Counted from the first letter of the stretch, positions 41,696-57,404 are shown. The stretch is DNA of 64,000 nt from Vulcanimicrobiota bacterium (GCA_963805945.1 CAWDVP010000004.1:64001-128000), one strand, 5' to 3'. Translations and numbers: made by a program. Notes: a model not told the origin generated them from the letters alone.

Positions 41696-42490
41696 ATGGC
41701 GGACTTCAAAGGTAAGAACATCATCATCACCGGCGGCGGCAGCGGCTTGGGCGCTGCGATGGCCATACATCTCGCTGCATTGGGCGGGCGGGTCATCGTG
41801 GCCGGGCGGCGCCCGGAGATGCTCGCGGAAACGGTTGCCGCGATCGAGACCGCAGGCGGCAAGGCTGACGCCATACCGACCGACGTCCGCGTGCCCGAAC
41901 AGGTGCAGGCGCTCGTCGACGGCGTGGTCAGCAAGCACGGCAGCGTCGATTGCCTGGTCAACAACGCCGCCGGCAACTTCATCGTGCGCGCGGAAGAGCT
42001 CTCGCCGAACGGCTGGAACGCGGTGATCAACATCGTGCTCAACGGCACGTTCTATTGCTCGCGCGCCGTGGGCAAGGCGATGATCGCCGCCGGTCATGGC
42101 GGTTCGATCCTCAACATCGTCGCGGCGTACGCGTGGACCGGTGGACCCGGCACGATCCATTCCGCGGCGGCCAAGGCGGGCGTCATCTCGATGACGCAAA
42201 CGCTAGCGGTGGAGTGGGGCCATCACGGCATCCGCGTGAACGCGCTGTGTCCGGGCGTCGTGAACACGCCGGGCGCCGCCGCGAAGCTCTTCCCGACCGA
42301 GGCGATCCGCGATCGCATCGCGCGGCGCGTGCCGCTCGGCCGGCTCGAGACGTCTGACGAAGTCGCTAAGGCAGCCGCATATCTGCTGTCCGACGATGCG
42401 TCCTATGTCAACGGCGCGGTGCTGGTGGCCGACGGCGGCATGTGGCTCGATCAGGGATTGCTCGCCGCAAACGCCCCCGAAGGCATGTAG
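41696..42490 (+). CDS. SDR oxidoreductase, 2,4-dienoyl-CoA reductase-like
   Basis: TGGGSGLG, NNAAGNF, HSAAAKAG. Confidence 0.88.
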   Translation: MADFKGKNIIITGGGSGLGAAMAIHLAALGGRVIVAGRRPEMLAETVAAIETAGGKADAIPTDVRVPEQVQALVDGVVSKHGSVDCLVNNAAGNFIVRAEELSPNGWNAVINIVLNGTFYCSRAVGKAMIAAGHGGSILNIVAAYAWTGGPGTIHSAAAKAGVISMTQTLAVEWGHHGIRVNALCPGVVNTPGAAAKLFPTEAIRDRIARRVPLGRLETSDEVAKAAAYLLSDDASYVNGAVLVADGGMWLDQGLLAANAPEGM

Positions 42491-42512
42491 GGGTCGACCT
42501 TTAGGTCGACCC
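42486..42512. repeat. REP family A copy, supplies the SDR stop codon
   Basis: TGTAGGGGTCGACCTTTAGGTCGACCC. Confidence 0.88.
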
Positions 42513-42516
42513 AGGA

Positions 42517-42535
42517 ATTGAGACCCATTCTCAAT
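42517..42535. promoter_or_regulatory. Putative Fur/Zur box
   Basis: ATTGAGACC-C-ATTCTCAAT, similar to the palindrome at 57384. Confidence 0.65.
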
Positions 42536-42581
42536 AAGAAGGCCTGAAGAACCTTGCCCTTCGCGCCGATATTGTGGATAT

Positions 42582-43196
42582 ATGAGTGACCTCGCGCTGC
42601 GGATGACCCGCGGCCTCACCCCGATGTACGTCTGCCTGGTGGTGCTGGGCAGCATCGTCGCGCACTTGGCATCCGAATTCTTCTCCATGGGTTCCGAGGC
42701 GAGCGACATCGCGCTCTCGCCCAAGCATCTGTATCTCGGCGTCGCCGCGCTCGTCTGTGCGGCGGTCGTCGTGCTGCAAGCGCGTTCGCTACTGCGATCT
42801 TCCGAAGGCGCGCGCGACCTCAAGCGCCGGCTTCATCTCGGTCTGGAAGCGCTGCCCTTGCGCGGACGCGGCCTCGCGTTCTTGACGCTTACCGCAGGAC
42901 TCCAGCTCGCCATCGGCCTCGCGACGCAGTACGGCGAGGGCTGCCCGTTCTGCGGCCACGACGTGGCAGCGGGCGTCCTCGGCGCGCTGCTCACCGTCAT
43001 CGTGCTCGCGTTTGCGGGACGCTTCATCGGCGCCCGCTTGCCGTCAATCGCCGCGGCCATCGCTGCCCTCTTCATCGAACCTTCGACCAACGCACACGCG
43101 TTGTCATCGCTACGCGACGTCGCGTCGCCGGCGTTCTTCCGCTTCATCTGGTTCAGCCAGCTCTACAACCGCCCTCCGCCTTCCCTCTCGATCTAA
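42582..43196 (+). CDS. Membrane leader protein 1 (CxxC + C-terminal RPPP), putative arrest peptide
   Basis: About 4 TM, CPFCGH, ends NRPPPSLSI; directly upstream of a TonB-dependent receptor. Confidence 0.75.
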   Translation: MSDLALRMTRGLTPMYVCLVVLGSIVAHLASEFFSMGSEASDIALSPKHLYLGVAALVCAAVVVLQARSLLRSSEGARDLKRRLHLGLEALPLRGRGLAFLTLTAGLQLAIGLATQYGEGCPFCGHDVAAGVLGALLTVIVLAFAGRFIGARLPSIAAAIAALFIEPSTNAHALSSLRDVASPAFFRFIWFSQLYNRPPPSLSI

Positions 43197-43224
43197 CGGC
43201 CGAAGCACTCGGCCGCGCCCAGGA

Positions 43225-43249
43225 CGGTCGAGTGAATTCGACCGCTCCA
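43225..43249. repeat. REP family B copy in the leader-receptor spacer
   Basis: CGGTCGAGTGAATTCGACCGCTCCA. Confidence 0.8.
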
Positions 43250-43268
43250 TTCATTTTGAGAGGGAGTC

Positions 43269-45638
43269 ATGTCATACCATCTCTTCAGCCGCCCGCTGTG
43301 GGCGGCGCTAGCGCTCGCCGGCGTGCTCGCTATGCCGTCGGTCGGCGCGTGCGCCGGAGCGTTTCTGACCGGCTCGGTGACGCTCGACGGCAAACCCGCC
43401 GCCGGTGCGACGGTCACCGCCACGGGCAACAACCTCGTGCAGACGAAGCGCACCGATGCACAGGGACGCTTCAGCTTCAGCACGCTCCAACCGGGCGCGT
43501 ACGCGCTCGACGCGGCGTGGAACGATCGGCGCGCGCATCGCTCGATCGAGCTGTCGGCGAGCGGCGCCGATGTCTCGCTGGAACTTGATCCGAAGAACAT
43601 CGGCAGCATCAAAGTCACCGCGTCGAGCGCCGCGCCCATCAGGGGCGCCGGCACCGACGTCACGCTCAACTCGACGATGCTCACCCGCACGCCGGCCGGC
43701 GGCAGCTTCCCGGAATTGCTCGTGCAGTTGCCCGGCGCGGCGCGCGGGGCCAACGGCGTGGTCCATATCAACGGCGATCACGGCGACATCAACTACATCG
43801 TCGACGGGGCCTCCATCCCGCAAGCGCTCAACCGCGTCATCGGCACCGAGTTCGACGCGAACGACGTCGCGTTCGTCGACGTGCTGCAGGGCGCGTATCC
43901 CGCGCAATACGGAGAGCGTTTCGCCAGCGTGCTCAACATCAGCACGCGCACGGGCACCGGGCCGCCCGGCGCGATCCTCGATCTCTCCGGCGGCTCGTAC
44001 GCGAACTACGATTCGACCGTCGGGTACCACGGCCCGGTCGGTGCGGGCTCACTGGTGCTGGCGGTCCGTGACGGACGCTCGAGCTACGGCCTGGACCCGC
44101 CCGATCTGACCTCGCTTCACAACGACGCGAGCGATGCCAGCCAGTTCCTCCGCTACACGGTGCCTGTCGGCCACGACTACCTCAACTTCACCATGTCGCA
44201 TTCGTATCAGACGTTCCAGGTCCCGATCGACGTGCTCGGCGGCCAGCCCGCGAGCAGCGACGACAACGAGACACAGAACGACACCTTTGCGACGCTGCAG
44301 TACCGCCGCGCCATCGCGGACCGCGGTTCGCTGTCGCTGGGCGCGGCGTATAAGCGCTCGCAGATCCGCGACTTCGGCGATCCGCTGCCCGATTGGGCGT
44401 TCGGCATAAACACGTGGGTCGGCAGCGGCGGGCTGCCGTCGGACTGCTTCAACGCGCTCACGATCACCAATTACGCCAACAGCACGTGCGCCTACACGCT
44501 TGCCGACAACCGCACCGCCACCGATTACAAGTTCAATCTCGACGACGCGCTGCGCGGCGGCGCGCACGAGGTGCGCTGGGGCGCGCTTTATGACGTGACG
44601 CTCGTGCCCAAGCTCTACGACATCACGCTGCAACCGGGCAACTATCTCGCACCGATGTTCACGCCGGGGACGCCGCTCGCGCCGTATCCGGTGATCGACA
44701 ACGCGCCGAACGTCGGCCACACCGAAGCCGCATACCTTCAAGACAGCTGGCGCATGGGCCAGGCGTATCAGCTCGACTACGGGCTGCGCGTCGACGCGTT
44801 CCAGATCTTTTCGGATCAGTTCGACCAGGGCTTTTCCATGTTCAGCCCGCGCATCAAGCTGACGCGCTTCTTCAGTCCGCGCGCGAGCGCGTACGCCTAC
44901 TACGGCCGCTTCTTCACGCCGTTCTCGTTCGAGAACGTGTCGCCGAGCGCGGCGTACCTGCTCAACCTGCCGCTTCAGCCGACGCTCGCTCAGTTCGACC
45001 TCAAGCCGCAGCGCGACTCCGATTACGAGATCGGCGGCCACTTGCCGCTCGGCAAGGGCGATCTCGGCTTGCGCGTGATGCAGAAAGACGCGACTGATCT
45101 CATCGACGACACGCAAGTAGGCGTGACGCTGCTGCACCAGGACATCAACTACCAGCTCGGGCGGATAGCCACGCAGTCGGCGTACTACCAGCAGACGCTT
45201 GCGCACGGCGGTCGTTTTTATGTGACCGGCAACCACACGTATTCGGTCAACAAAGGCTGTGAGACGCAGCTGTTGGCGCCGTGCTTCGGCTCGTCGACGG
45301 ATTGGACGCCAGCCGACCACATGCAGGCGTGGGGCGCCACCTCAGGGATCGTGCTCAACGACGCGCGCGGCGGCTGGTTCTCGATCGACGGCGAGTACGG
45401 GACCGGGCTATCGTCAGCGGGTTGCTCCGCCGCGACGCCGGGCTTCTGCGAATACACGCCGCATCTCACGTTCAACGCGGTGAAGGGCTTCGCGATCGGA
45501 CCGAAGACCGTGGCGACGGTGGGGATCGGCAACCTGCTCAACCATCAGTTCTTCATCACGTATCTCAACGCGCAGGGCAATCATTACTACCCGCCGCTCA
45601 CCGTGAACGTCGGCCTGCGCTTCGGCGTAAGCCGCTGA
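43269..45638 (+). CDS. TonB-dependent receptor 1 with N-terminal carboxypeptidase-regulatory-like domain
   Basis: Signal peptide, plug motifs YIVDG and GAYPAQYG, barrel strands, NLLN, terminal VGLRF. Confidence 0.9.
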   Translation: MSYHLFSRPLWAALALAGVLAMPSVGACAGAFLTGSVTLDGKPAAGATVTATGNNLVQTKRTDAQGRFSFSTLQPGAYALDAAWNDRRAHRSIELSASGADVSLELDPKNIGSIKVTASSAAPIRGAGTDVTLNSTMLTRTPAGGSFPELLVQLPGAARGANGVVHINGDHGDINYIVDGASIPQALNRVIGTEFDANDVAFVDVLQGAYPAQYGERFASVLNISTRTGTGPPGAILDLSGGSYANYDSTVGYHGPVGAGSLVLAVRDGRSSYGLDPPDLTSLHNDASDASQFLRYTVPVGHDYLNFTMSHSYQTFQVPIDVLGGQPASSDDNETQNDTFATLQYRRAIADRGSLSLGAAYKRSQIRDFGDPLPDWAFGINTWVGSGGLPSDCFNALTITNYANSTCAYTLADNRTATDYKFNLDDALRGGAHEVRWGALYDVTLVPKLYDITLQPGNYLAPMFTPGTPLAPYPVIDNAPNVGHTEAAYLQDSWRMGQAYQLDYGLRVDAFQIFSDQFDQGFSMFSPRIKLTRFFSPRASAYAYYGRFFTPFSFENVSPSAAYLLNLPLQPTLAQFDLKPQRDSDYEIGGHLPLGKGDLGLRVMQKDATDLIDDTQVGVTLLHQDINYQLGRIATQSAYYQQTLAHGGRFYVTGNHTYSVNKGCETQLLAPCFGSSTDWTPADHMQAWGATSGIVLNDARGGWFSIDGEYGTGLSSAGCSAATPGFCEYTPHLTFNAVKGFAIGPKTVATVGIGNLLNHQFFITYLNAQGNHYYPPLTVNVGLRFGVSR

Positions 45639-45665
45639 TGTAGGGGTCGACCTTTAGGTCGACCC
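45639..45665. repeat. REP family A copy, contains the stop of the convergent MauE gene
   Basis: TGTAGGGGTCGACCTTTAGGTCGACCC. Confidence 0.88.
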
Positions 45666-46094
45666 TTCGACCGGCCTCCGCCACGACCACCACATCAGAT
45701 AGATCGCGGGGATGATCGCCGCGCCGTCGCGCGCGATCGTCCACCAGGTTACCGGGTCGGTCTCGCGTGGCCCGAAGCAGCCGCACGGAGTCGGGATGCC
45801 GCGCACCACCACGGACGCGAGCGCCGCGATGAACACGAGCAGCACTGCGACCGCCACCACTGAGACGATGCGCAACTGCCAGCCGAGCAGCAGGTACACG
45901 CCCAGCACTATCTCAAGCAACGGCAAAGCGATGGCGGCGAAGCCGACGAATTGCGCCGGCAGATCGAGCCGGAAGGCGACGATCGTGGACCCGAGATCCG
46001 GCGCATGGCCCATCTTGAGGACGCCGGCGGCGATGAACACCAGCCCGACGATGATCCGGGCGATGAGGGGCAGCACGTGAAGAAGACGAGCCAA
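45654..46094 (-). CDS. MauE/DoxX family redox membrane protein
   Basis: ARIIVGLVFIAAGVLK, LPLLEI, CGCFG; start 46094 or 46076. Confidence 0.88.
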   Translation of the reverse strand: MARLLHVLPLIARIIVGLVFIAAGVLKMGHAPDLGSTIVAFRLDLPAQFVGFAAIALPLLEIVLGVYLLLGWQLRIVSVVAVAVLLVFIAALASVVVRGIPTPCGCFGPRETDPVTWWTIARDGAAIIPAIYLMWWSWRRPVEGST

Positions 46095-46721
46095 GCATCA
46101 CAACCTTCCGCGAAGCCGACGACGGGACCGCGATGGGGCACCATTTTGCCAGTCATCGCGGGCGTCCTCGTCGTCATCGCGATCGCCGTATATGCGATCA
46201 CGCAATCCCACAAGCTGCCGAGCGCGGCCGTCGAGCCGAACGCGCTGCCGTCGGTGCCGCCGCCGATCAAAGTCGGCGCGCGTGCGCCCGCGTTCTCGGT
46301 GCAGACGCCGCTCGGCGCCGTCTCCAACGACACGTTCGCCGGCAAACCGTACATGGTCGAGCTGTTCGCCACATGGTGCCCGCATTGCCAGCGCATGACG
46401 GCCGTGCTGCGCTCGCTGCGCGCGAAACTGCCGGAGTCGCGCTTCGGCATGGTCTCCGTCACCGGCTCGCCGTACGCCGCAGGCTCGACGCAGGGTGCCC
46501 CCATCGCCGAGAGTCAAGCGGACGTCGACGCGTTCGACAAGTACTTCAACGTCACATGGCTGTCCGTGTGGGATCCGCAACTCACGACGGCGGCGGCGTT
46601 CGGGCTCAACGGCTTTCCGACGATCTTCATCGTGGACGCCAAGGGCACGATTGTCTATACTGCAAGCGGTGAGCTCCCCGAGGCGACGCTGCTCGCCGCC
46701 GCCCGCAAGGCAGGCGCCTGA
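46077..46721 (+). CDS. Membrane-anchored TlpA/redoxin thioredoxin
   Basis: One TM, APAF, FATWCPHC, GFPTIFIVD. Confidence 0.88.
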   Translation: MKKTSQASQPSAKPTTGPRWGTILPVIAGVLVVIAIAVYAITQSHKLPSAAVEPNALPSVPPPIKVGARAPAFSVQTPLGAVSNDTFAGKPYMVELFATWCPHCQRMTAVLRSLRAKLPESRFGMVSVTGSPYAAGSTQGAPIAESQADVDAFDKYFNVTWLSVWDPQLTTAAAFGLNGFPTIFIVDAKGTIVYTASGELPEATLLAAARKAGA

Positions 46722-46801
46722 CCTTAGAATCCGCTGAGATGTCCACCACGCGGAGCACGGCCACAGGGGGCGCGCGCCCTACGGCCTAATGTATATGCAT
46801 C

Positions 46802-47473
46802 ATGAGGAACCGGGAGGTCTGCTGGCTGTTGATCGGAGCGGTGGCACTTGGCGCATCGCTCGCGGGCCACGCCGTGCAACTCGCGATCGAGTCCGCTCAC
46901 CTCTTCGGCGGCGTGCCTGCGCGCTACAGCCACGTGCTGCAGACACCGATCTCGCTCATCATGTTCGGCGCACTCGTCGTCGCCGCGCTGTTCATCGCGC
47001 GCGGTATCCTCGAAAGCGTCTATGACGAATTCGGCGGTGCCGACTGGCTCGTGCCGGCGCTCGATGCCGTCGCGGCGATCGCGCCCGGCCGCCTCATCGC
47101 ATTGGTCGTCGGTCTGCAGCTCGCGTCGCTCATCGGCGGCGAGCTGACCGAGCAAGCGCTGTCGTCCTACGGCGCATTCGGCTTGGGAGCCATCTTCGGC
47201 CCCGGTCATCTCAGCGCGCCATTCGTGCACGTCGCCATCGGCACGCTCGCCGCGTGGCTGCTGCTCGCGTTCGCGCGCGCCGTCTGCGCTCGCGTTGCGG
47301 ATATCGCTCGCTTCGCGCGCTCGCTCATCGCGTGGGTCTCCCGGCCCGCGCGCGTCCGTTGTGCTCCGGCGCTGCGCGTCCTCGCGCTCGCCTCGGAGTC
47401 ACCCGCACCACCGCTGCTGGCGCGACACATCGCCAGCCGTCCGCCTCCGGCCGCCGCTACGCTTGTAGCATAG
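46802..47473 (+). CDS. Membrane leader protein 2 (His-containing, C-terminal RPPP), putative arrest peptide
   Basis: About 4 TM, shares GLQLA with leader 1, ends HIASRPPPAAATLVA; directly upstream of a TonB-dependent receptor. Confidence 0.72.
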   Translation: MRNREVCWLLIGAVALGASLAGHAVQLAIESAHLFGGVPARYSHVLQTPISLIMFGALVVAALFIARGILESVYDEFGGADWLVPALDAVAAIAPGRLIALVVGLQLASLIGGELTEQALSSYGAFGLGAIFGPGHLSAPFVHVAIGTLAAWLLLAFARAVCARVADIARFARSLIAWVSRPARVRCAPALRVLALASESPAPPLLARHIASRPPPAAATLVA

Positions 47474-47525
47474 GCGGCCAAATCCGGCTTCCCGCCTTTT
47501 GGCCGCCTCCCCATAGGGTGGAGGT

Positions 47526-49793
47526 ATGGTCTTGCGTTTTCGTATTTTCTTTTTCATTTCCGTCGCATGCGCCGCGGCGCTCGCAGCGGTCGGCTCATTC
47601 GCACCGGCGTCCGCGAGCACGCTCGGCGCGATCCGCGGCACCGTCTACGATTCCGCCGGGCATCCGCTGCAGCACGCCAAGGTCGTCATCGTGGCCGGCG
47701 TCGGCACCAAGGACAGCACGGCGACCGATGCGTCCGGACGCTACATCTTCCCGCGCGTCGAGTTCGATACGTACACGGTGACCGTCACCGCGGCGGGCCT
47801 GCCGCCGAACAGCCAGATCGTGACCGTCGCGAGCGGCACCGTCACGGTACTTGATTTCCACCTCTCGGAGAAGAAGCTCGCCAGCGTCGTCACCGTCGCC
47901 AAAGCCGGGCACCCGGTGAGCGTGACCGTGATGACGCCGCAGATGATCCAGACGCTGCCGAGCAACTTCAAGCTCGCGAGCGTCACCGAGACGGTGCCCG
48001 GGGTCGTGCCGTTCTCGTACGACGAACCGGTGGTGCGCGGCTTCCACGGCGTCGCGTACTACATCGACGGCATCCCGATCCCGCAGACATCGTCGTCCGC
48101 GTTCGCCGAGGTCCTCGATCCGCGCGATATCGGCTCGGTGGAGGTCTACACAGGCTCGTTCCCCGCCGAGTACGGCGGCAGCCGCCAGGGCGGCGTGGTC
48201 AACATCATCTCCAAACGGCCGAGCGGGAACGGCGGCGACATCACGCTCACCGGCGGCAACTACGCCACCGGCGCCACGCAGCTCAGCGAATCGTTCGGCG
48301 GTCCGACCCTCAAAGCGTACGTATCGCTCAACTTCGACCGCACCGACCGCGGCCTCGATTCACCGACCGCGCAGCCCATCCATGACGCCGCGAGCCAATC
48401 GAACGAATTCATGCGGCTCACATATGTCCCCGACAGCCGCGACTCATGGGCGTTGCATTTCTCCAATCTGTTCTCGACGTTCCAGATCCCGATCGACACG
48501 AATCCGACCAGCGTGAGCTTCGCGCCGCAGGGAAGCGACGACTTGCAGTACGAGTACGCCCGCTATGCGAGCATCGTCTACAACCGCCTGAGCGCGGACG
48601 GCCAAGGCTACCTCGAGATCTCGCCCTGGTATAACCGCAGCCAGGTGAAGTTCTTCCCGGATCCGACCAACGATCTCGCGAGCGCCGCCATGGCGTCGAC
48701 CTTCCAGGATCGGGTCGGCACGTACTACGGGTTGACCGGGGCCTACTTCCGCAGCTGGACGAAGGACAATCTGAAGATCGGCTTCACCGGCGCGGTCGAG
48801 GACTTCACCAGCGCGTTCAACATCCAGTTCATCGATCCCACGACGATGATGTTGCAGCAGTTCAACGACAACGCGGCGCAGACCGGCACGAACTTCGGCA
48901 TCTACGCCGAAGACAAGATGATCCTGTCACCCATGTTCACCACGAACATCGGCCTGCGCTACGACCGCTCGACGGGTTTCACCGACGGCAACCAGGTGAG
49001 TCCGCGCTTCGAGCTCGATTACCTCGCCAATCCCAAGGAGACGGTCCATTTCTATTACGGACGCTTGTACGCGGCGCCGGCGCTCGAAGACACGCGGCGC
49101 AGCGCCGTCGTCATCGGCGGCGGCTCAGGCTTGCCGGTGTACGACCTCAAGCCCGAGACCGATTCGATCTACGAGTTCGGCTTTTCGCATCAGGTGACGC
49201 AGACGTCGAGATGGTACATCAACTATTGGGCGCGCTCCGTCGCCAACGTGCTCGACACGACCCAGATCGGCTCGACGCCGATCTTCACGATCTTCAATTC
49301 GACCTCCGGTCGCGCGCAAGGCATCGAGTTCAGCTACAGCGGGCAGGCGCAGAATCTCAACAGCTACTTCGTGTCGTATGGCCTCTCCGAGAGCCTTGCG
49401 TCGGGCATCTCGGGCGGCACGTTCCTGTTCTCTCCTGATCAGCTTCAGGGCGCCAATGGCTTCGCCCCGGAGGACCACGACCAGACTAACACGCTCAACA
49501 CCGCGTACACGTGGCGGCTGTCGAAGGACCGCCAGACCTGGACCTCGCTGCAGGCGATCTACGGCAGCGGCTATCCCGTGCAGTTCGAGAACGGACCGGG
49601 CAGGCTGCCCGCGCACTGGGAGCTCAACGCGTCGTACGGGCGCTTCGCGACGGGCGGGCATCTCGGCTACCAGCTGCAGGCGACCAACTTGACCAACAAC
49701 ATCTATCTCATCAAACTCAACAACGGCTTCAACACGACCCAATACGCGCGCGGCTTCCAGCTCACGGCGCAGATCACCGCGCCGATCCACTAG
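47526..49793 (+). CDS. TonB-dependent receptor 2 (paralog of receptor 1)
   Basis: Signal peptide, YYIDG, GSFPAEYGG, VVNIISK, DLKPE, NLTN. Confidence 0.9.
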   Translation: MVLRFRIFFFISVACAAALAAVGSFAPASASTLGAIRGTVYDSAGHPLQHAKVVIVAGVGTKDSTATDASGRYIFPRVEFDTYTVTVTAAGLPPNSQIVTVASGTVTVLDFHLSEKKLASVVTVAKAGHPVSVTVMTPQMIQTLPSNFKLASVTETVPGVVPFSYDEPVVRGFHGVAYYIDGIPIPQTSSSAFAEVLDPRDIGSVEVYTGSFPAEYGGSRQGGVVNIISKRPSGNGGDITLTGGNYATGATQLSESFGGPTLKAYVSLNFDRTDRGLDSPTAQPIHDAASQSNEFMRLTYVPDSRDSWALHFSNLFSTFQIPIDTNPTSVSFAPQGSDDLQYEYARYASIVYNRLSADGQGYLEISPWYNRSQVKFFPDPTNDLASAAMASTFQDRVGTYYGLTGAYFRSWTKDNLKIGFTGAVEDFTSAFNIQFIDPTTMMLQQFNDNAAQTGTNFGIYAEDKMILSPMFTTNIGLRYDRSTGFTDGNQVSPRFELDYLANPKETVHFYYGRLYAAPALEDTRRSAVVIGGGSGLPVYDLKPETDSIYEFGFSHQVTQTSRWYINYWARSVANVLDTTQIGSTPIFTIFNSTSGRAQGIEFSYSGQAQNLNSYFVSYGLSESLASGISGGTFLFSPDQLQGANGFAPEDHDQTNTLNTAYTWRLSKDRQTWTSLQAIYGSGYPVQFENGPGRLPAHWELNASYGRFATGGHLGYQLQATNLTNNIYLIKLNNGFNTTQYARGFQLTAQITAPIH

Positions 49794-49855
49794 CAAGTGC
49801 GGGCGTCCGGCGCTGCAAAGGCCTGGTGACGCCGCATTTTCTCTAGGAGATCGAG

Positions 49856-50722
49856 ATGGAGCGAAGCGTCTTTCTTCGGGGTTTGAGCGCCGGCGTGGCG
49901 GGAGCATCTGTTTGCGGATTGGCACCGCTCGTGGCGCGTGCGGCCGATCATGGCGATGCGCCGCATTGGACCTACGGCGGGGGTGAGGACGGCCCCGCGC
50001 ATTGGGGCGACCTCGCGCCCGACTTCCACACCTGCTCGATCGGCCAGCAGCAATCGCCGGTCAATATCAGCGACGTCGCCACCGGCGCGATCGGCGACAT
50101 CCAGCGTTCGTATCGCACCTCGCCGCTGCGCATCATCAACAATGGCCACACCATCCAGGTCGATTACGCCGCCGGCAGCACGCTCACGCTGCGCGGCCGG
50201 ATGTGGGAGATCGTCCAGTTCCACTTCCACACGCCGAGCGAGCACACGTACCAGGGCGCGCACTACGACATGGAGCTGCACATCGTGCATCAGAACACCG
50301 CGAAACATGTGTGCGTCCTCGGCGTCTTCATGAAGGCCGGCACGGCGAACGCCGAGATCCAGAAGATATGGGACGCGATGCCGATGAAGGAGGGGCCCGA
50401 GCAAACGGTGAGCGGCGTCAGCGTCAACGTCGGCGCGCTCGTGCCTGCGACGAAGGTCTACTACAACTATCTCGGTTCGTTCACCACGCCGCCGTGCACT
50501 GAGAACGTCGAATGGCTGGTGCTGCGCGATCCGATCCAGGTCTCAGCCGCGCAGATCGCGCGCTTCAAAGCGGCGATCCCGATGAACGCGCGGCCGGTGC
50601 AGCCGGTCAACCAGCGGTTGGTCATCAGAACCTGTCTACTGCGACGCGTTTGCCTGGTTGTGCAGGTACGCGTCGATGAACGACTGGATCTTGGCCTGAT
50701 CGATCGTGTCGAGCGTCCCTAA
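49856..50722 (+). CDS. Alpha-carbonic anhydrase with Tat-like signal (true stop may be near 50640)
   Basis: HWTY, QSPVNI, NNGHT, QFHFHTPSEH, ELHIVH, GSFTTPPCTE. Confidence 0.93.
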   Translation: MERSVFLRGLSAGVAGASVCGLAPLVARAADHGDAPHWTYGGGEDGPAHWGDLAPDFHTCSIGQQQSPVNISDVATGAIGDIQRSYRTSPLRIINNGHTIQVDYAAGSTLTLRGRMWEIVQFHFHTPSEHTYQGAHYDMELHIVHQNTAKHVCVLGVFMKAGTANAEIQKIWDAMPMKEGPEQTVSGVSVNVGALVPATKVYYNYLGSFTTPPCTENVEWLVLRDPIQVSAAQIARFKAAIPMNARPVQPVNQRLVIRTCLLRRVCLVVQVRVDERLDLGLIDRVERP

Positions 50723-51303
50723 TCGCGTCCACGCGGTCACCGCGATCTTGTGCTTCATGCCTGGATACGGCGCGACGATGACCGCTTGGCCGGATTCTTC
50801 AGCGCTCTGGACGTCTGCCGGCAGCGGCTGGAGCTGGCTCACCGGGACCAGTTTCGAGTCGTAGGTATAGGCGATCTGGTAGAGCGCACCCGCGATGTCC
50901 GGACAGTTGCAGTTGTACTGCAGCAGCACGTTGCCGTGCTCGAGCAGATGGACTTGCACCCACTTGGGCAGCGGCGTCGGGCTGTTGAACGAATCGTTGA
51001 ACGCCTCTTTGTGCGGCCCGGACGTCGGCGGGTCGGAGTTGTAGGCGAAGTCGGTGGACTCGCCAGCATCGAAATGCTTGTGCCCCTGCGACGGGTAGTG
51101 CGTGCCCAGGAATTTGAGCATGATGACCGTCCCCGCCGAGGCGCTCGCCGCGGCAGCGGTTGCGCCCGACGGCGCCGGGGATGCGCTCGCATCGCTGGCG
51201 GATTTGGTGCAGCCGCCGACGGCAAGCGCGAGGGCGATTGCGCCGGCCGCTGCGATGGCCTGTAGTGCCCGAGCGAAGCTCGGGTTTTTTCTTTCGTCGT
51301 CAT
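50636..51303 (-). CDS. DUF3105-family lipoprotein
   Basis: Lipobox VGG-C, DPPTSGPH, VHLLEHG, TAW. Confidence 0.8.
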
Positions 51304-51983
51304 TGCGTCGAATTCGCCTGGTTCGCAAGATACGCGTTGATGAAGCGGATGATCGTCGCCTGATCGAACGCGTCGAGCCACTCGAGCCGCGTCCAGGCGG
51401 TGAGCGCGATCTTGTGCTTCATGCCCGGATACGGCGCGACGATGACGCCGGTGCCGCGCTCTTCGACGCCCTGCGCCAAGTCAGCCGTGAAACCGGTCGC
51501 GCCCGGCGGCAGCTGCCGGTTGTTGTACTCGGCGGCGAGCTGCGCCAATGCGCCTGCGATATCGGGGCACTGGCAGCTGTACTGCATCAACACGTTGCCG
51601 TGCTCGAGCAAGTGGACCTGCATGTACTTGGGAAGCGGCTGCATGCTGATGAGCTCCTGGGAGAACTGCTCGAGGTGCATGCCCGAGGTCGGCGGATCGG
51701 AGCTGTAATGGAAGGTCGAGACGCCGGCGTCATCGGGTCCCTTCTTATCGTGACCTTGATGGCCTTGCGATTTGAAGAACAGGCCCGGCGTCTCGCGGGG
51801 TCCCGGCGACGCGGTCGACGTGGCCGCGGGCGAAGGGCTTGCGCTGACCGCCGACGGCGGGTTGCGGTGCGAGATGCTCATGACGATGAGCGCGACGATG
51901 GCGATGACGACGAAGGCGGCGAACGCGAGCGTCGCCATGCGGGCGGTCTGGTCGGCCGCCGGCGTGGTGGATTTCTTCGACAT
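51300..51983 (-). CDS. DUF3105-family membrane-anchored protein
   Basis: N-terminal TM, DPPTSGMH, VHLLEHG, TAW. Confidence 0.82.
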   Translation of the reverse strand: MSKKSTTPAADQTARMATLAFAAFVVIAIVALIVMSISHRNPPSAVSASPSPAATSTASPGPRETPGLFFKSQGHQGHDKKGPDDAGVSTFHYSSDPPTSGMHLEQFSQELISMQPLPKYMQVHLLEHGNVLMQYSCQCPDIAGALAQLAAEYNNRQLPPGATGFTADLAQGVEERGTGVIVAPYPGMKHKIALTAWTRLEWLDAFDQATIIRFINAYLANQANSTQ

Positions 51984-52048: not shown

Positions 52049-53542
52049 TCAGGGTACCGCATGCAGCGCATTCACGAATGCGTAGATGACGAGCGGCACG
52101 GCGATGACCACATAGATGCGCAAGAGCCATAACAGCGCCGTCACGCCAGGCCCGAGCTTGCGGCGGGGCAGAGGCGGCCTCATTTCGGGATGATGTTCGG
52201 GAACACGGTGATGACGCCGTATGCCGAACCCATGAGCGCGATGATGATGATGATGGCGCCTCCCAGCGCTTGCTCTTCCACCCGTTCGCCAGCGGTCCGA
52301 TGACCTCACGGTCGTTGGCGAGCAGGAGCAAGAACAGCAGCGCCGGCGCCATCAGCAGGGTGGCGATGACGTTGACGGCAGATCGTGATGGCGAGCAGCG
52401 GCGCGTGCGGGATCAGCACGACGGCGGCGGCGACGACGACCGAGACGATGGCCGACGCGTAGAACGGCCGCGCGCTGGCGAAATCCGGCGTTGAGGCTGT
52501 GCGCGCGCGGATACTCTCGCCGAACGCGTAGGCCGAGCTCGTGGAGATCGTCATCGCGGCCACCAGCCCGGCCTCGATGATGCCGAGCGCGAACAGCGTC
52601 GCCGCCTGTGCCCGCCGAGCAACGGCTGCAGCGCGGTCGCGAAGTCGGCGCCGCTGGCGAAGCTGACGAGACGTTGACATGATGCGATGAAGAGCGGCGC
52701 GGCGGCCACGAGAGTGGCGATCGCGGCGACCGCCGCGACCGCCGCGCCGATCGCGGTGTCGAACCGGCCCTGCGGCAGATCGGCTCGCGCCAGGCCTTTG
52801 TCCACCACCGCGCTCTGCTGGAAGAAGATCATCCACGGCGTGACCGTGGCGCCGATGTCGCCAGGATGAGCGTCACGAAGCGCAGCAGTCGAGCCCGCCT
52901 GGCAGCGGGCTCCAGGTGCCGAACGCGTGCGCCAGCGCCGCCCCGCTCGGATGCGCCAAGAGCGCCGCGGGGACGAACAGCAGGTTGAACGCCGCGAGCG
53001 CCAGCACGGCGCGCTCCCAGGTGAAGTAGCGCCGCATGCGAGCGACGCGAAGATCACAGGCCGCGCCGCCCGCCACCGACAGCCAGCGGCGCGGAGATGC
53101 CGAAGTACAGCCCACCGGCCTGGATCGCGATGAACTCGGTGATCAGGGTCAGCACGTTGCCGAACGGCGAGATCGACCATCGAGAAGTAGCCCCAGAACG
53201 GCCGAAGCGGTCGAAGATGAGCTCGGCATGTCCGCGATGCGTCGCGATGCCGAGACGCACCGTCATCTCCTGCACGACGAACGCCATGAAGAACGTGAGC
53301 AGGATGAACGGGACGAAGAAACCGATGCCGTAGGTCGCGCCGGTCGTCGCGTACGAGAGCATGCTCGGGCCGTCGTTCTCGCCGAGCATGACCAGAATGC
53401 CGGGACCCGCGAGCAGGAAGTACAACCAGATGGGCTGGTGTTCGCGGCGCGCTTCGACCACCCGCGCTCGATCGCGCGCGCGCAGCGTCTCCTCGCGCGA
53501 CGCGCGCTGGTCCGCGGCGGAGACCTCCACGAACTCACCCAT
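52049..53542 (-). CDS. NRAMP-family divalent metal transporter (multiple frameshifts)
   Basis: GPGILVMLGENDGP, QEMTVRLG, GATVTPWMIFFQQS across several frames. Confidence 0.85.
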
Positions 53543-54230
53543 GCGCGGCAGCCTTCACCCGGATCGCCGTGCAGCGCACTTCGCCGGCGGCCTTGCGCGC
53601 GACGGTCAAAGATCGCCGGCCGATCCGCAACCGGATGCCGGCCGCGCTTGCGGACTCCACCGTGCCGCGTAAACCCGGCAGCACGCCTCGTTCGCGCAGA
53701 TACTTGACCGCCGCTTCATCGCGATCGTCGAGAAACGTGACGACCACCGTGTCGCCGCGACCGGTATCCGAAAGACGCATGCCCTTCGCCTTGACGTTCG
53801 CACCGCGCGGCGACGGGATGGGATGCCCATGCGGATCGGTCGCCGGATTGCCGAGGAAGTCGGCGAGTCGGCGCGCGATGTCGTCCGAGATCGCGTGCTC
53901 GATCTTCTCCGCGTCCGCGTGGACGCGCTCGAGCGGCACCTTCAGCGCGAGATGGAGGAACGTCTCGACGAGGCGATGCCGGCGCACCATGTCGAGCGCG
54001 AGACGCGTGCCGCGCGCGGTCAGCTGCAGCAGGCCGCCCGCGCCGAGGTCGCGCACGAAGCCGCGCCGCTGCAGGTCGCGCACCAGCTTGCTCACCGACG
54101 CGCGTGACACGCCGAGGCGCCGCGCCACATCCGCCGACTTGACGGGCTCGCCTCCGCCGAGCTGGTAGATCGCCTTGCAGTAGTCCTGCCGCGCACGCTC
54201 CGGCGAACGGTCGCCGCCGGCGTTAACCAT
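53535..54230 (-). CDS. DtxR/MntR-family metal-dependent repressor with FeoA domain
   Basis: QDYCKAIY, RRHRLVETFL, EKIEH, DPHGHPIP. Confidence 0.93.
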   Translation of the reverse strand: MVNAGGDRSPERARQDYCKAIYQLGGGEPVKSADVARRLGVSRASVSKLVRDLQRRGFVRDLGAGGLLQLTARGTRLALDMVRRHRLVETFLHLALKVPLERVHADAEKIEHAISDDIARRLADFLGNPATDPHGHPIPSPRGANVKAKGMRLSDTGRGDTVVVTFLDDRDEAAVKYLRERGVLPGLRGTVESASAAGIRLRIGRRSLTVARKAAGEVRCTAIRVKAAAHG

Positions 54231-54253
54231 AGCTAACGTCAACCATGGTTAAC
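54222..54253. promoter_or_regulatory. Tandem 16-bp palindromes over the mntR start, putative autoregulatory operator
   Basis: GTTAACCATAGCTAAC directly followed by GTCAACCATGGTTAAC. Confidence 0.65.
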
Positions 54254-54315: not shown

Positions 54316-54735
54316 TCACGAGCAACGCGCGCACAGGCCGAACAGCTCGAGCTTGTGCTGGGTGAGGGTGAAATGCAGCCTTGAGGTGATCGTGCGGGCG
54401 AAGCGCTCGATCGAGGCGCACGGCACGTCGTCGACCTTACCGCACTTGACGCAGACCGCGTGGTGGTGATGGGCGATCGGGCAGAACACGTACGCGTTCT
54501 CGCCGTGCGGCCCGGGCGACCTCGAGGCGGCGCCCACGTGCTCCAGCACTTCGAGCGTCCGATAGACCGTGGCCAGTCCGATGCGCGGCCGGCGCGCGGC
54601 AAGTCGCTCGTGCAGCTGCTGCGGCGTGACGTAACGGCGCACGCGCGCGAACTCGGCGACGATCGCCTTGCGCTGGCTGGTGACGCGGCAGCCGTTCTTC
54701 GCGAGGGCGTCGTAGACGGCGGTGGAGGCGGTCAT
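54316..54735 (-). CDS. Fur-family regulator, probably Zur
   Basis: RVTSQR, IGLATVYRTL, HHHHAVCVKC, CARC; last gene of a znuACB-like operon. Confidence 0.9.
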   Translation of the reverse strand: MTASTAVYDALAKNGCRVTSQRKAIVAEFARVRRYVTPQQLHERLAARRPRIGLATVYRTLEVLEHVGAASRSPGPHGENAYVFCPIAHHHHAVCVKCGKVDDVPCASIERFARTITSRLHFTLTQHKLELFGLCARCS

Positions 54736-55592
54736 GCCTGCACCTTTTCGCGTTGCCGGCGCGCCTCGATCACCTGGGTGAGCAGCGAGCGGCGCTTGGG
54801 CGAGACAACACGCGAGGAAGAAGCACGGCGTGGCGGTGAGCACGATGGTCGAGCCGGACGCCGCATCGAGATAGTAGGAGGCGTACAGTCCGATGACGGC
54901 CGAGCCCACGCCGACGGCCGCCGAGGTCGCCATCATCGGGCCGAAGCGATTCGGTGAGCTGGTACGCGGTGGCGGCAGGCGTCACGAGCAGCGCCGCGAC
55001 GAGCACGATGCCGGCCGCCTGCAGCGAGACGATGATGGTCACCGCGATGATCACGAGCAGCAGATTGCTCAGCGCGACCGTCGGCAGGCCGCTCGCCTGC
55101 GCCATGAGCGGATCGAACGACGCGAACAGCAGCTCCTTGTAGAACGCGAGATGAGCAGCAGCGCGACGATGGCGAGCCCGCGACGAGAGCGATGTCCGTC
55201 TTGTCGACGAGAGCACGTTGCCGAACAGGAAATCCTGCAGATCGACCATGTAGGTGCGCGTGCGCGACATGAGCAGCACGCCGAGCGCGAACACCGCGGT
55301 GAACAGCACGCCGATCGCGGTGTCCATCGAGACCACGAACGGCGGCTCACCGCGCCGATGCCAAGCGCGGTTAGGATGGCGAAGATGAGGCCGCCCACGT
55401 ACAGGTTATCTTGAACATATAGGCGAGCACGATGCCCAGAAACGATGCGTGCGCGAGGCCGTCGCCGATGAACGCGAGATTGCGCAGCACGACGTAGACG
55501 CCGACGACGCGAACACCAGGCCGATGAGCGTCGACGCGATGAGCGCGCGCTGCATGAACTCGTGCTGCAGCGGGAGCGAGCAGCCAGTCCAC
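54732..55592 (-). CDS. Zn/Mn ABC permease (ZnuB-like, frameshifted)
   Basis: GDGLAHA, DTAIG, FLFGNVL, SFDP, PAATA. Confidence 0.88.
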
Positions 55593-55593
55593 G

Positions 55594-56488
55594 TCAGTGC
55601 TGCATCGAGCGGACGGCCGCTGCGCTTCAGGGATGAGCGAGCACGTGGCTGCCGAAGGTCGCCGAGAGGGTCGCGTCGGTGAGCACCTCGCTCGGCGGAC
55701 CGTAGGCGATGACGCGATGGTTGAGGCAGAGCACCTTGTCGAACCAGGTGGCGACGCACGAAAGGTCGTGCGTCTCGCGATGATGGTCATGCCGGCTTTC
55801 TGCCGCGCTTCGAGCAGCGTGAAGATCGCGTGCTGGCTGGTCGCGTCGACGCCGGCGATCGGCTCGTCGAGCAGCAGCAACGCCGGGTTCTGCACCAGCG
55901 AGCGCGCGACGAAGACGCGCTGCTGCTGGCCGCCCGAAAGTTCGCCGATCTGCGCGCGCGCGAAGTCGCGCATGCCGACTTCGTCGAGCGCGCTCATGGC
56001 GGCGCGCTTGTCCTCGTCCTTGGGCCGATGGAAGAGACCGAGCTTCCCGTATACTCCCATGAGCACGACGTCGAAGACGCTCACCGGAAAAGTCCAGTTC
56101 ACCGCTTCGGTCTGCGGCACATAGCCGACGCCCGGCCCTGGCCGGGAGGCCCGCCGAGCACGTCGATGCTGCCGCAGCCGGCTCGCAGGCCGGCGATGAC
56201 CTTCAGCAAAGTGGACTTGCCGGAGCCGTTAGGCCCGATGATGCCGATGAACTCGCCGCGCCGACGTCGAAGGTGACTTCGTCGAGCACGTCGCGGCCGA
56301 AGTAGCCCGCGCAGATGCCTCCATCCAGACCGCATAGCGCGAGTCGTCGGCGGCGGCTTCCATTCAAGCGGATGGTGGCCTTCGTGCCGGTGCAGAGTGC
56401 GGGGCGACCGGTGCGACCGTGTGGCGTGGTCGCGCGGTGCGGCGGGCGCCGCCGGATCGACGTGGGTGTGGTCGTGCGGTTCGTTCAT
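55594..56488 (-). CDS. Zn/Mn ABC ATPase (ZnuC-like, frameshifted, His-rich N-terminus)
   Basis: GPNGSGKST, LSGGQQQRV, LLLDEP. Confidence 0.88.
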
Positions 56489-57377
56489 TGCTGTAGTGCC
56501 TTACGATCGGTCGACGTCGTAGCGCATCAACCGTCGTATGTGGCAAGCTCCGGCGTCGTGCCGAGGGTGTCATCGTAGAGATCGGTGACCGTTTGGATGC
56601 CGGCGCTCGAGGCGAGCTCGTCGGCGAGTTTCCGCGAGAATTGCGGCTCCGCGAAGACGGCGTGCACATGGTGGCGCCGCGCGTCAGGCGATGAGCGCTG
56701 CAGCGCGCCCGCCGACGGCTCTGGCCGGGTGACGGTTCGATCGCGCCGACGTCGTGCATGCCATAGCGCTTGTCGAAGTAGTACCACGCGTCGTGGAAGC
56801 AGATCATGACGCGCGGCGGGCGGGATGGTGGCGATCCGCGCGATCCAGCTATCGAGCGTGCTGAGCGCGCGCGTACGTCTTGCTCGCTTCGCCGCGTTGT
56901 AGGCCGCGTTGGCCGGACGGTCTCGCGCAGTGCGGCGCCGATCTTCTTCGCGTAGTCCTGCGCATAGGTCGCATCCAGCCACAGATGGGGATTGCCGGGC
57001 TCGCTTGCGCGTGCGGCCCGCACCGGCATGCCGTCGGAGAGCACGATCAGCGTGCCTTCGTGTTCGCGACGCTGGCAGCAGTTTGTCCATCCAAGCTCGA
57101 GGCCCGCGCCGTTCTTCACGATGAGCTGGGCCTGTGCGAGCTCGACGAGGTCCTGCGGCGACGGTTCGTACGTCTCCGGCGCGGCGCCGATGGGCACGAG
57201 GCTGACGACATCGATTTGTCGCCGCCGACAGGACTTGACGATCGCGCGAGCGTGGACAAGGTCGCCATGACGTTGATGCGGCCGCCGGACGTCGTGCGAT
57301 GACGCGCTCGTCTGGACTGCGGCGCGCAGGCGCCGGCGAGCAGCGCGAGCACGAGAGCCGCTGCCACATGCGGCCAC
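56485..57377 (-). CDS. Zn/Mn ABC substrate-binding lipoprotein (ZnuA-like, frameshifted)
   Basis: LAGA-C lipobox, YEPSP, NPHLWLD, FHDAWYYF, FAEPQ. Confidence 0.87.
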
Positions 57378-57383
57378 GATTCT

Positions 57384-57404
57384 TATCGAGAATCATTCTC
57401 GATA
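57384..57404. promoter_or_regulatory. Perfect 10-1-10 palindrome, putative Zur box
   Basis: TATCGAGAAT-C-ATTCTCGATA directly upstream of the znuA-like gene. Confidence 0.8.

Follow-up and report, generated by a model that had tools for sequence, protein, structure and literature searches.

Paired four-helix membrane genes ending in RPPP upstream of TonB-dependent receptors in a Vulcanimicrobiota bacterium: candidate arrest leaders

RPPP-ending membrane genes and the receptors that follow them

The 64,000-nucleotide (nt) stretch of Vulcanimicrobiota DNA considered here (GCA_963805945.1 CAWDVP010000004.1:64001-128000; henceforth the window, with a G+C content of 67% and with all coordinates counted within the whole of it) contains two open reading frames (ORFs), ORF1 and ORF2, which code for four-helix membrane proteins with an RPPP motif at the C-terminus, each directly upstream of a gene for a TonB-dependent receptor (Table 1). 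The original prediction, made from the sequence alone, regarded them as paralogous leaders of a candidate metal-sensing ribosome-arrest system. Its description of the locus holds: both ORFs were recovered at the positions and lengths that it gave and are coding-like, with G+C by codon position (0.66/0.50/0.83 in ORF1 and 0.74/0.54/0.82 in ORF2) of the coding type seen in the neighboring genes; the motif lies 4 residues ahead of the end of ORF1 (...LYNRPPPSLSI, or, over a longer stretch, ...WFSQLYNRPPPSLSI) and 7 residues ahead of that of ORF2 (...IASRPPPAAATLVA, or ...LLARHIASRPPPAAATLVA); and the receptor genes begin 72 and 52 nt further on, respectively. The window contains 60 ORFs that look coding (17,487 residues in all); RPPP is confined to these two, with 0.26 occurrences expected, and the same set holds eight further PPP sequences and no R[AG]PP.

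Both receptor genes match PF07715 and PF00593, in addition to an N-terminal CarboxypepD_reg domain, and their products share 26% identity (E = 2e-42). Both matches of receptor 2 pass the Pfam gathering score, and the Plug match of receptor 1 falls just under it (22.6 bits, with the threshold at 23.9). Sequence searches of the PDB with either receptor returned marginal matches only (E ~1e-3), with no close solved relative of receptor 1, and therefore no substrate can be assigned.

Homologs at E<=0.01 numbered 103 for ORF1 and 27 for ORF2, all named ones coming from Eremiobacterota/Vulcanimicrobiota metagenome bins. RPPP lies no more than 13 residues from the C-terminal end in 100 of the former (of the three without it, two are truncated and one is C-terminally divergent) and in all of the latter, as well as in every genomic copy (18/18 in the ORF1 family and 14/14 in the ORF2 family). 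Across these 32 genomic copies the arginine is encoded by CGC, CGT, CGG, CGA, AGA and AGG and the prolines by all four of their codons; hence, the constraint acts on the peptide and not on the nucleotides. Further, a profile search with the ORF1 family over 1.84 billion protein representatives yielded 134 clusters at E<=1e-3. In 109 of these distant representatives RPPP stands 0-13 residues before the end (median 5), with asparagine preceding the arginine in 63 and serine in 26, and in two of them (P0253 and P0261) NRAPP occupies the same place. The latter two read LPNRAPP where relatives at 39-48% identity read LPNRPPP; so aligned, RAPP and RPPP are seen to substitute for each other at this C-terminal position in the P0253 sub-branch of the ORF1 family. 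The other 23 representatives carry neither motif, at least 10 of them being short fragments. Two (P0172 and P0190) have LPPP in place of RPPP, and LPPP upstream of secA is a reported arrest motif (PMC10987492).

A scan of species-representative genomes uncovered 17 related loci (L001-L017). A homolog of ORF1 directly precedes the ortholog of receptor 1 in all 17 of them, and an ORF2 homolog, present in 13, is followed by the ortholog of receptor 2 in 12 (the remaining one, L009, is taken up below), with leader-receptor gaps of 33-107 nt. This order is kept both where the two modules stand in tandem (the window and L001-L003) and where they are arranged head-to-head (L004-L007, L011-L013, L016 and L017). 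The conservation of RPPP, the linkage of the homologs to receptors and the divergence of sequence on both sides of the motif, points on which the original prediction could have been refuted by computation, all came out in its favor. The ORF2 homolog of L003 (L003:12785-13454) is distributed over two frames that change near codon 130 (tblastn pieces covering query residues 1-132 and 127-216), which is a frameshift or an assembly error. Records titled as a proteobacterium (L012, L013 and L016) or as Acidiferrales (L014) share the modules and the operator of the Eremiobacterota bins, which means either that these titles are loose or that the module is also present beyond the phylum.

Hydropathy delineates four hydrophobic segments in each ORF, as had been proposed, and the AlphaFold models of both leaders (predicted local distance difference test, pLDDT, of 79 for ORF1 and 75 for ORF2) show, in order, helices 1 and 2, a short helix, helix 3, a loop, the long helix 4 and a low-confidence tail. 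The N-terminus, the tail and, in ORF1, the middle loop are rich in lysine and arginine, and hydropathy together with charge indicates an N-in/C-in topology. In the ORF1 family, the linker connecting helix 4 to the motif is constant in length and variable in sequence. No Pfam or NCBIfam family matches either leader, and a Foldseek search of the PDB with the ORF1 model returned no match at E<=0.001 (best E 0.26, template modelling score 0.2). Kinship with the DUF2946 leaders, one of the analogies on which the original prediction was built, was not borne out, as the DUF2946 profile matches neither ORF1 nor ORF2 at E<=0.1, nor any of the 47 ORF1-family and 26 ORF2-family alignment members at E<=1. 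The proposed paralogy of the two leaders has moderate support: BLASTP (E 0.35) and a first profile comparison (probability 1%) offered nothing for it, and hhalign, after the addition of distant ORF2 orthologs, aligned the two families with a probability of 57.6% (E 1e-4) over 202 colinear columns that include RPPP. A distant paralogy of the ORF1 and ORF2 families is plausible from these alignments.

Table 1. Positions of the two leader-receptor modules, their RNA elements and the associated genes and boxes within the window (aa, amino acids; SD, Shine-Dalgarno; bp, base pairs)
Feature	Position	Strand	Remarks
Fur-family (Zur-like) palindromic operator candidate	42518-42534		TTGAGAcccATTCTCAA; 47 nt upstream of ORF1 start
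Leader/sensor 1 (ORF1)	42582-43196	+	204 aa; four helices, N-in/C-in; disordered tail, end NRPPPSLSI
Periplasmic-loop codons E119-G-C-P-F-C-G-H-D127 of ORF1	42936-42962	+	Candidate metal site
R197-P198-P199-P200 codons of ORF1 (CGC CCT CCG CCT)	43170-43181	+	Proposed stall site
Anti-SD arm	43181-43191	+	UUCCCUCUCGA; last base of P200 codon through first base of I204 codon
Two intergenic hairpins	43197-43203:43209-43215, 43222-43231:43238-43248	+	Inside the long-range helix; the second a weak terminator-like match
SD arm of receptor 1	43256-43266	+	UUGAGAGGGAG; start codon at 43269
TonB-dependent receptor 1	43269-45638	+	789 aa; CarboxypepD_reg + Plug + TonB_dep_Rec_b-barrel; start 72 nt past ORF1
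MauE/DoxX-family membrane protein	45654-46094	-	Conserved beside receptor-2 module
TlpA/ResA/DsbE-like membrane-anchored thioredoxin (redoxin)	45951-46721	+	True start perhaps further downstream
Leader/sensor 2 (ORF2)	46802-47473	+	223 aa; four helices; C-terminal end SRPPPAAATLVA
R213-P214-P215-P216 codons of ORF2 (CGT CCG CCT CCG)	47438-47449	+	Double as anti-SD arm (47437-47440 + 47443-47449) in the minimum-energy fold
Stable intergenic hairpin, 11 bp	47472-47508	+	3' arm is a competing anti-SD
SD GGAGG and AUG of receptor 2	47519-47529	+	Paired with S-RPPP codons in the minimum-energy fold
TonB-dependent receptor 2	47526-49793	+	755 aa; CarboxypepD_reg + Plug + TonB_dep_Rec_b-barrel; start 52 nt past ORF2
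Second Fur-family box	57386-57402		TCGAGAATCATTCTCGA; directly upstream of minus-strand ZnuA-like/ABC/ABC-3/FUR-family row 54316-57396

Predicted pairing of the C-terminal codons with the receptor Shine-Dalgarno sequence

In the predicted fold of the junction between ORF1 and receptor 1, the segment at 43181-43191 pairs with that at 43256-43266 in an 11-bp helix (z = -2.8), which would bury the receptor SD sequence under the last codons of the leader. A duplex scan of ~300-370 12-nt windows per locus, which covered the spacer and the 300 nt of leader sequence nearest to it, identifies this arm as the best SD complement among 337 windows at ORF1, and in 16 of the 18 ORF1-family loci the best complement of the receptor SD begins +3 to +11 nt from the first proline codon. 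The sequence of the helix varies by lineage (GAGAGGGAG, UUGGAGC, ACGGAGC, CGGGAGC, UGAGGAG and others) and the partner strand changes along with it: cognate footprint:SD duplexes have a mean of -18.7 kcal/mol as opposed to -12.6 when partners are swapped, a mean that was not attained in any of 20,000 permutations for the cognate pairs. RNAalifold on the eight alignable ORF1-family loci recovered the helix with six pairs, and compensatory changes are seen in two of the six; applied to MAFFT alignments of all 18 ORF1-family and all 14 ORF2-family leader-to-receptor segments it recovered no pairs, since spacers of differing length and sequence put the 3' ends out of register. A search of positions 42000-50000 against Rfam gave no match at E<=1. 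The footprint of a ribosome reaches ~15 nt 3' of the P-site codon, and when this stretch is made unpairable for a ribosome at RP[P]P, the SD accessibility modelled for the ORF1 family goes up from 0.19 to 0.40; with the ribosome placed 15 codons further upstream, it stays at 0.19. Taken together, these comparisons of sequence make a covarying, SD-sequestering helix in the ORF1 family well-supported.

In the ORF2 family, the S-RPPP codons themselves (47437-47449) pair with 47519-47529 in the minimum-energy fold (z = -4.1), and exchanging partners changes the mean from -18.4 for cognate duplexes to -16.0 kcal/mol; the cognate value was attained in 6 of 20,000 permutations. An RNA switch in this family is, at this point, unproven.

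The stable hairpins present in the spacers bear on a transcriptional alternative, under which a paused ribosome would mainly shield the transcript from Rho or from an intergenic attenuator, thereby controlling transcription of the receptor gene instead of, or in addition to, its translation. Such is the published mechanism of the CruR-BfrG pair (PMC9426467; PMC12914433), and one weak terminator-like site does lie at 43230-43247. However, the gaps of 33-107 nt seen here compare with 162 bp in Bordetella, terminator-like sites number 2 versus 3.1 in shuffled sequences, most loci have no U-run after their hairpins, and the element that covaries is specifically the complement of the SD. Attenuation of the CruR type is accordingly rated as quite improbable for these modules. 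An intrinsic terminator or attenuator placed between leader and receptor was set aside, as terminator-like sites are not above the level in shuffles.

A helix of this kind could also serve plain translational coupling, by which any ribosome passing to the stop codon of the upstream gene would allow translation of the receptor; the leaders would then be inner-membrane partners of the receptors, such as a metal permease or reductase, with an RPPP tail that binds something in the cytoplasm. The conservation of the whole body with its ligand-like invariant residues would be natural under this explanation, EF-P normally relieves RPPP pauses, and the anti-SD lies between the proline codons and the stop, so that any terminating ribosome opens it too. 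What it does not lead one to expect is a binding motif 0-13 residues from the end in 109 of 134 divergent representatives, after a disordered linker that is fixed in length and variable in sequence, nor the specific replacement of that motif by RAPP, a proven arrest motif, nor residues after RPPP that vary as the RNA helix demands. Additionally, the arginine at position -1 is the residue that stalled most strongly in one E. coli context: RPPP gave the strongest stall of the XPPP series in the NlpD context and belonged to the strong cluster in the CadC context, and it is under-represented in E. coli, the stall being dependent on EF-P (PMC4176338, Starosta et al. 2014). RPPP is also listed among the RAPP-like query motifs of Fujiwara 2024 (PMC10987492). 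We consider plain coupling unlikely, though the first of the alternatives to be kept in mind.

Candidate sensor residues, Fur-family operator and proposed mechanism

The residues which might sense a ligand were in part recognized in the original prediction: the histidine of helix 1 (H28 in ORF1 and H23 in ORF2) and the GLQLA motif are present in both leaders, and CPFCGH makes up residues 121-126 of ORF1, with no CxxC in ORF2. The alignments single out H28, E32, H49, E119 and D127, usually along with H126 and C121/C124, as the invariant or near-invariant set of the ORF1 family, and H23, E30, Y42, H44, Q47, Q106, E114, E117 and H136 as the invariant set of the ORF2 family. In the predicted topology, the conserved residues of both families sit at the periplasmic ends of helices or in periplasmic loops. 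Close homologs of ORF1 retain E119 in 103/103, D127 in 101/103, C121 in 93/103 and C124 in 84/103, and the corresponding counts among distant representatives are 113, 84, 28 and 18 of 130; the histidines, glutamates and aspartates stay, with the cysteines mostly lost. The distance from E119 to the arginine of RPPP is also constrained, at 78 residues in 94 of 100 close homologs of ORF1, and, among the 105 distant representatives that could be scored, at 78 residues in 43 and at 76-80 in 95.

The palindrome upstream of ORF1 conforms to the consensus TTATCGAGAATCATTCTCGATAA, which has two matches in the window against 0.04 expected. Searched with <=2 mismatches over 14 specified positions, it is the sole match in 13 of the 17 loci, 44-112 nt upstream of the start of the ORF1-family gene. 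Its distance to the start of the ORF2-family gene is 94-132 nt in seven of the head-to-head loci and 1,161 nt in L009, where the leaders are not adjacent. The four loci without the palindrome are L002, L005 (which has a degenerate copy), and L010 and L014 (with little or no upstream sequence). We take it to resemble the boxes bound by Fur and Zur, and, given this resemblance and the association of the second copy with a ZnuA-type operon, it is read as a Zur-type operator. The box common to ORF1 and that operon suggests zinc control. The regulator encoded there stays under every NCBIfam cut-off, with Fur, PerR, Zur and Irr all matching; as it cannot be typed, zinc is a metal that we infer. The ZnuA-like binding protein of the operon likewise matches AztC, MntC and ZnuA alike.

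Some of these metal-related genes are spread over several frames. In the row at 54316-57402 on the minus strand (genes for a ZnuA-like protein, an ABC ATPase, an ABC-3 permease and a FUR-family protein), the Pfam matches run across overlapping ORFs in different frames, and the C-terminus of ABC-3 falls in the same ORF as the FUR domain, which suggests frameshifts arising from decay or from assembly indels. An Nramp (MntH-type) gene on the same strand (52306-53542) is spread over three frames (profile positions 3-91, 167-252 and 252-318), and is adjoined by an intact gene for an MntR/DtxR-type repressor (53535-54242). Between the stop of a short-chain dehydrogenase gene and the Fur-family box lies an inverted repeat at 42491-42512, GGGTCGACC-TTTA-GGTCGACCC, which may be a terminator hairpin with no U-run or another operator.

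The membrane topology admits a further alternative, namely that the pause monitors the state of the cell rather than a metal, reporting either membrane insertion through Sec/YidC, as do SecM, MifM and ApdA, or the status of EF-P and prolyl-tRNA, to which synthesis of the receptor would be tuned. The leaders do have four transmembrane (TM) helices, RPPP is a classic EF-P-dependent motif, and a hydrophobic stretch of ORF1 ends at residue 166, 33 residues before P199. Partitioning of a segment into the membrane at about that distance pulls on the nascent chain. In ORF2, however, the last hydrophobic stretch ends 49 residues before P215; the genes downstream code for outer-membrane receptors and not for components of Sec or YidC; and the periplasm-facing histidine, glutamate, aspartate and cysteine residues, along with the Fur-family operator, point to metal. 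A cell-state monitor is the least probable of the explanations, and we hold it to be very improbable.

The interpretation toward which we lean, with moderate confidence, is that ORF1 and ORF2 encode inner-membrane, four-helix proteins, each of which regulates in cis, by an arrest or a long pause, the TonB-dependent receptor gene directly downstream of it. Starting from the observed conservation of RPPP, the synteny, the covarying helix and the shared operator, a mechanism can be proposed by analogy with known arrest peptides. The ribosome would slow at [N/S]-R-P-P-P, where, as in RAPP arrest, the second proline would occupy the P site and the third the A site, with slow formation of the peptide bond, and the paused ribosome would cover the next ~15 nt of the mRNA. 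In the ORF1 family, these nucleotides would be the anti-SD strand of the helix that otherwise hides the receptor ribosome-binding site; pausing would open that site for translation of the receptor, and the helix would re-form once the leader ribosome terminates. By the time of the pause, the four helices would already be outside the ribosome and the conserved histidine, glutamate and aspartate residues (with the cysteines where present) would face the periplasm. Binding of the transported metal at this site could alter the folding of the nascent chain or the force pulling on it, and with it the length of the pause. For the sign of the response a CruR-like logic seems most likely, in which metal would shorten the pause and shut off the importer; transcription would additionally be repressed by the Fur-family regulator, probably Zur.

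Several observations weigh against this interpretation. First, conservation extends over all of the 4-TM body (mean column identity of 45-70%), so that the leaders may have work to do as mature proteins, for instance as a permease or reductase partner of the receptor. The original expectation that everything outside RPPP would diverge holds for the linker and the tail that flank the motif, but not for the body. The leaders are neither short and disposable nor members of DUF2946; of the original prediction, the conserved motif, the linkage to receptors and, to a moderate degree, the paralogy stand. Second, RPPP pauses in E. coli are relieved by EF-P, and a long arrest is therefore not guaranteed. 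Third, the cysteine pair is missing from most distant relatives of ORF1, and the metal is not pinned by sequence, the FUR-family protein being untypable by NCBIfam. Fourth, the proline codons are intrinsically complementary to GGAGG, the receptor start codons were picked by the analyst using SD-like motifs and signal-peptide-like N-termini, and the short-segment folds in which all loci showed pairing (18/18 and 14/14) were cut 15 nt upstream of the arginine codon and are thereby biased toward pairing. Fifth, in the ORF2 family the best SD complement falls inside the footprint in just 5 of 14 loci, and the modelled SD accessibility rises only from 0.30 to 0.37; for ORF2 of the window it is flat (0.52 to 0.50), because of the competing anti-SD in the intergenic hairpin (47498-47508 and the CCCC that follows). 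Finally, no receptor follows the ORF2-family leader of L009. Its place is taken in that locus (L009:2660-5961, minus strand) by an unannotated ORF of 317 aa, for which there is no Pfam match, and by a CopD-cytochrome c fusion, and the MauE and thioredoxin genes still adjoin the leader; the leader module looks portable, and a link to copper is hinted at.

A more inclusive and decidedly more tentative reading would join these strands in an unnamed superfamily of ~200-aa, four-helix RPPP sensor-arrest proteins, with at least 134 clusters at 50% identity centred on Eremiobacterota/Vulcanimicrobiota, in which two modules gate two importers atop Zur control. With RPPP as the archetype of EF-P-sensitive motifs, two signals would be combined in the pause, namely the occupancy of the periplasmic metal site and the EF-P and translation status of the cell. 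Were this so, one module would be linked to zinc, and the other, located beside TlpA/MauE-type genes and swapped once onto a CopD-cytochrome c gene, hints at copper. Look-alike clusters in Actinomycetota and Dormibacterota are likewise unnamed and serve as leads only.

As for the remaining neighbors, the MauE/DoxX and TlpA/ResA-like genes (45654-46721) lie on opposite strands with overlapping 5' ends and accompany the receptor-2 module in 11 of the 17 loci. Receptor 2 is followed (49856-51983) by a gene for a eukaryotic-type (alpha) carbonic anhydrase, in which ~45 N-terminal residues lie before the matched domain and for which tblastn gave no match in the 17 related loci; beyond it, on the other strand, are two adjacent DUF3105 paralogs. 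A minus-strand gene at 60708-61913 codes for a protein with ATP-synt_ab and a T3SS EscN C-terminal domain, of the flagellar or type III export ATPase type.

Relation to known arrest leaders

The two leaders are best read as an RPPP variant of the RAPP-type regulatory arrest leaders represented by CruR, CutF and the Streptomyces 4-TM peptides. The general idea of a metal-sensing arrest leader ahead of a TonB receptor has already been published, 4-TM forms included, and hence the gain lies in a new family and a variant of the motif and not in a new principle. What is new comprises the RPPP variant, an unnamed polytopic family (the at least 134 clusters above), the duplication of the module within a genome, with a covarying SD switch in one of the two copies, and a stacked Fur-family operator; in the literature searched, nothing was found on RPPP leaders before TonB receptors or in Eremiobacterota, or on an RPPP-ending 4-TM family. 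If the interpretation is correct, regulatory arrest peptides would extend from RAPP/RGPP to RPPP, a sequence regarded until now as a general problem for which EF-P is needed, and the question would arise of how a regulatory pause can exist alongside EF-P. Such a system would further place a testable, post-transcriptional layer of metal import control atop a Fur-family repressor in an almost uncultured phylum. The diverged pair of sensor modules offers a natural case for studying how a polytopic nascent chain relays ligand binding to the peptidyl-transferase center, for which the invariant RPPP and the covarying helix give precise mutational predictions.

The cis-acting arrest of SecM (before secA) and MifM (before yidC2) likewise takes place close to the C-terminal end, with the stalled ribosome disrupting a helix that hides the downstream SD. 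Unlike the leaders here, these regulate the protein-localization machinery itself, have poorly conserved bodies and are released by the pulling of Sec or YidC.

Compared with the RAPP-like class, the leaders here have an R-x-P-P type motif near the C-terminus (RPPP in 109/134 and RAPP in 2 distant representatives), are small TM proteins encoded on the same strand directly upstream of the regulated gene (204 and 223 aa, at gaps of 33-107 nt, in 17/17 and 12/13 loci), and, in the ORF1 family, have by modelling a ribosome-binding site hidden by the mRNA that a stalled ribosome would cover. With regard to the CxxC of DUF2946 proteins at a fixed spacing, the picture is mixed: ORF1 has CPFC, which most close homologs retain and most distant representatives lack, ORF2 has none, and the 78-residue spacing holds for E119 in the same loop. 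Export with a signal peptide in the DUF2946 manner is not seen in the leaders, which have four long helices in an N-in/C-in arrangement.

CruR (Bp2923) of Bordetella pertussis is a 145-aa exported DUF2946 protein with a signal peptide, RAPP 3 residues before its C-terminal end and a metal-ligand motif at fixed spacing from the stall motif, and it exerts post-transcriptional copper control over the receptor BfrG/CrtA, acting by Rho protection across a 162-bp spacer (PMC9426467). It arrests translation in vitro (PMC12992588) and is described as having no Fur site (PMC12914433). The leaders here share with CruR the operonic position before a TonB-dependent transporter, the R-x-P-P near the stop and a candidate ligand residue at fixed spacing; unlike it, they have four TM segments, no DUF2946 match and RPPP in place of RAPP, in addition to the covarying SD-hiding helix in a 33-107 nt spacer and the Fur-family box. 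CutF of Rhodobacter capsulatus, a secreted DUF2946 protein with a proline-rich C-terminal PPP stall and an interplay with EF-P, melts upon copper-induced stalling a stem-loop over the ribosome-binding site of the next gene, which encodes the multicopper oxidase CutO (bioRxiv 10.1101/2025.02.05.636593). It resembles the leaders here in its C-terminal PPP, and it senses periplasmic metal across the membrane; the differences are the receptor downstream, the absence of any DUF2946 sequence relationship and the opposite sign of response that would be expected for an importer.

A further close precedent comes from a survey of RAPP and RGPP, the only motifs that were extracted in it (PMC12992588, Fujiwara et al. 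2025). Both were found to be depleted from proteomes and enriched near the C-terminal ends of small secreted or membrane proteins encoded before TonB-dependent receptors, copper genes and thioredoxins. The string RPPP is missing from the main text of that paper and, in its supplements (apart from file 8, and with file 6 in part), appears only within sequences listed under other motifs; the same supplements, to the same extent, contain no Eremiobacterota name. The upstream ORFs related to TonB receptors in that survey nearly all have signal peptides, unlike the four-TM leaders here. Seven RAPP/RGPP proteins of Streptomyces lividans arrest translation, and four of them, SLIV_18480, SLIV_27375 and SLIV_33595/33605, are 4-TM proteins, with conserved histidine/cysteine in two, that arrest in vitro and in vivo and precede metal-related or thioredoxin genes (PMC12992588). 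Compared by description only, the leaders here resemble these 4-TM peptides in their length of less than 300 aa, their four TM segments, their clusters of conserved histidine, cysteine and methionine and their conserved C-terminal motif of the arrest type.

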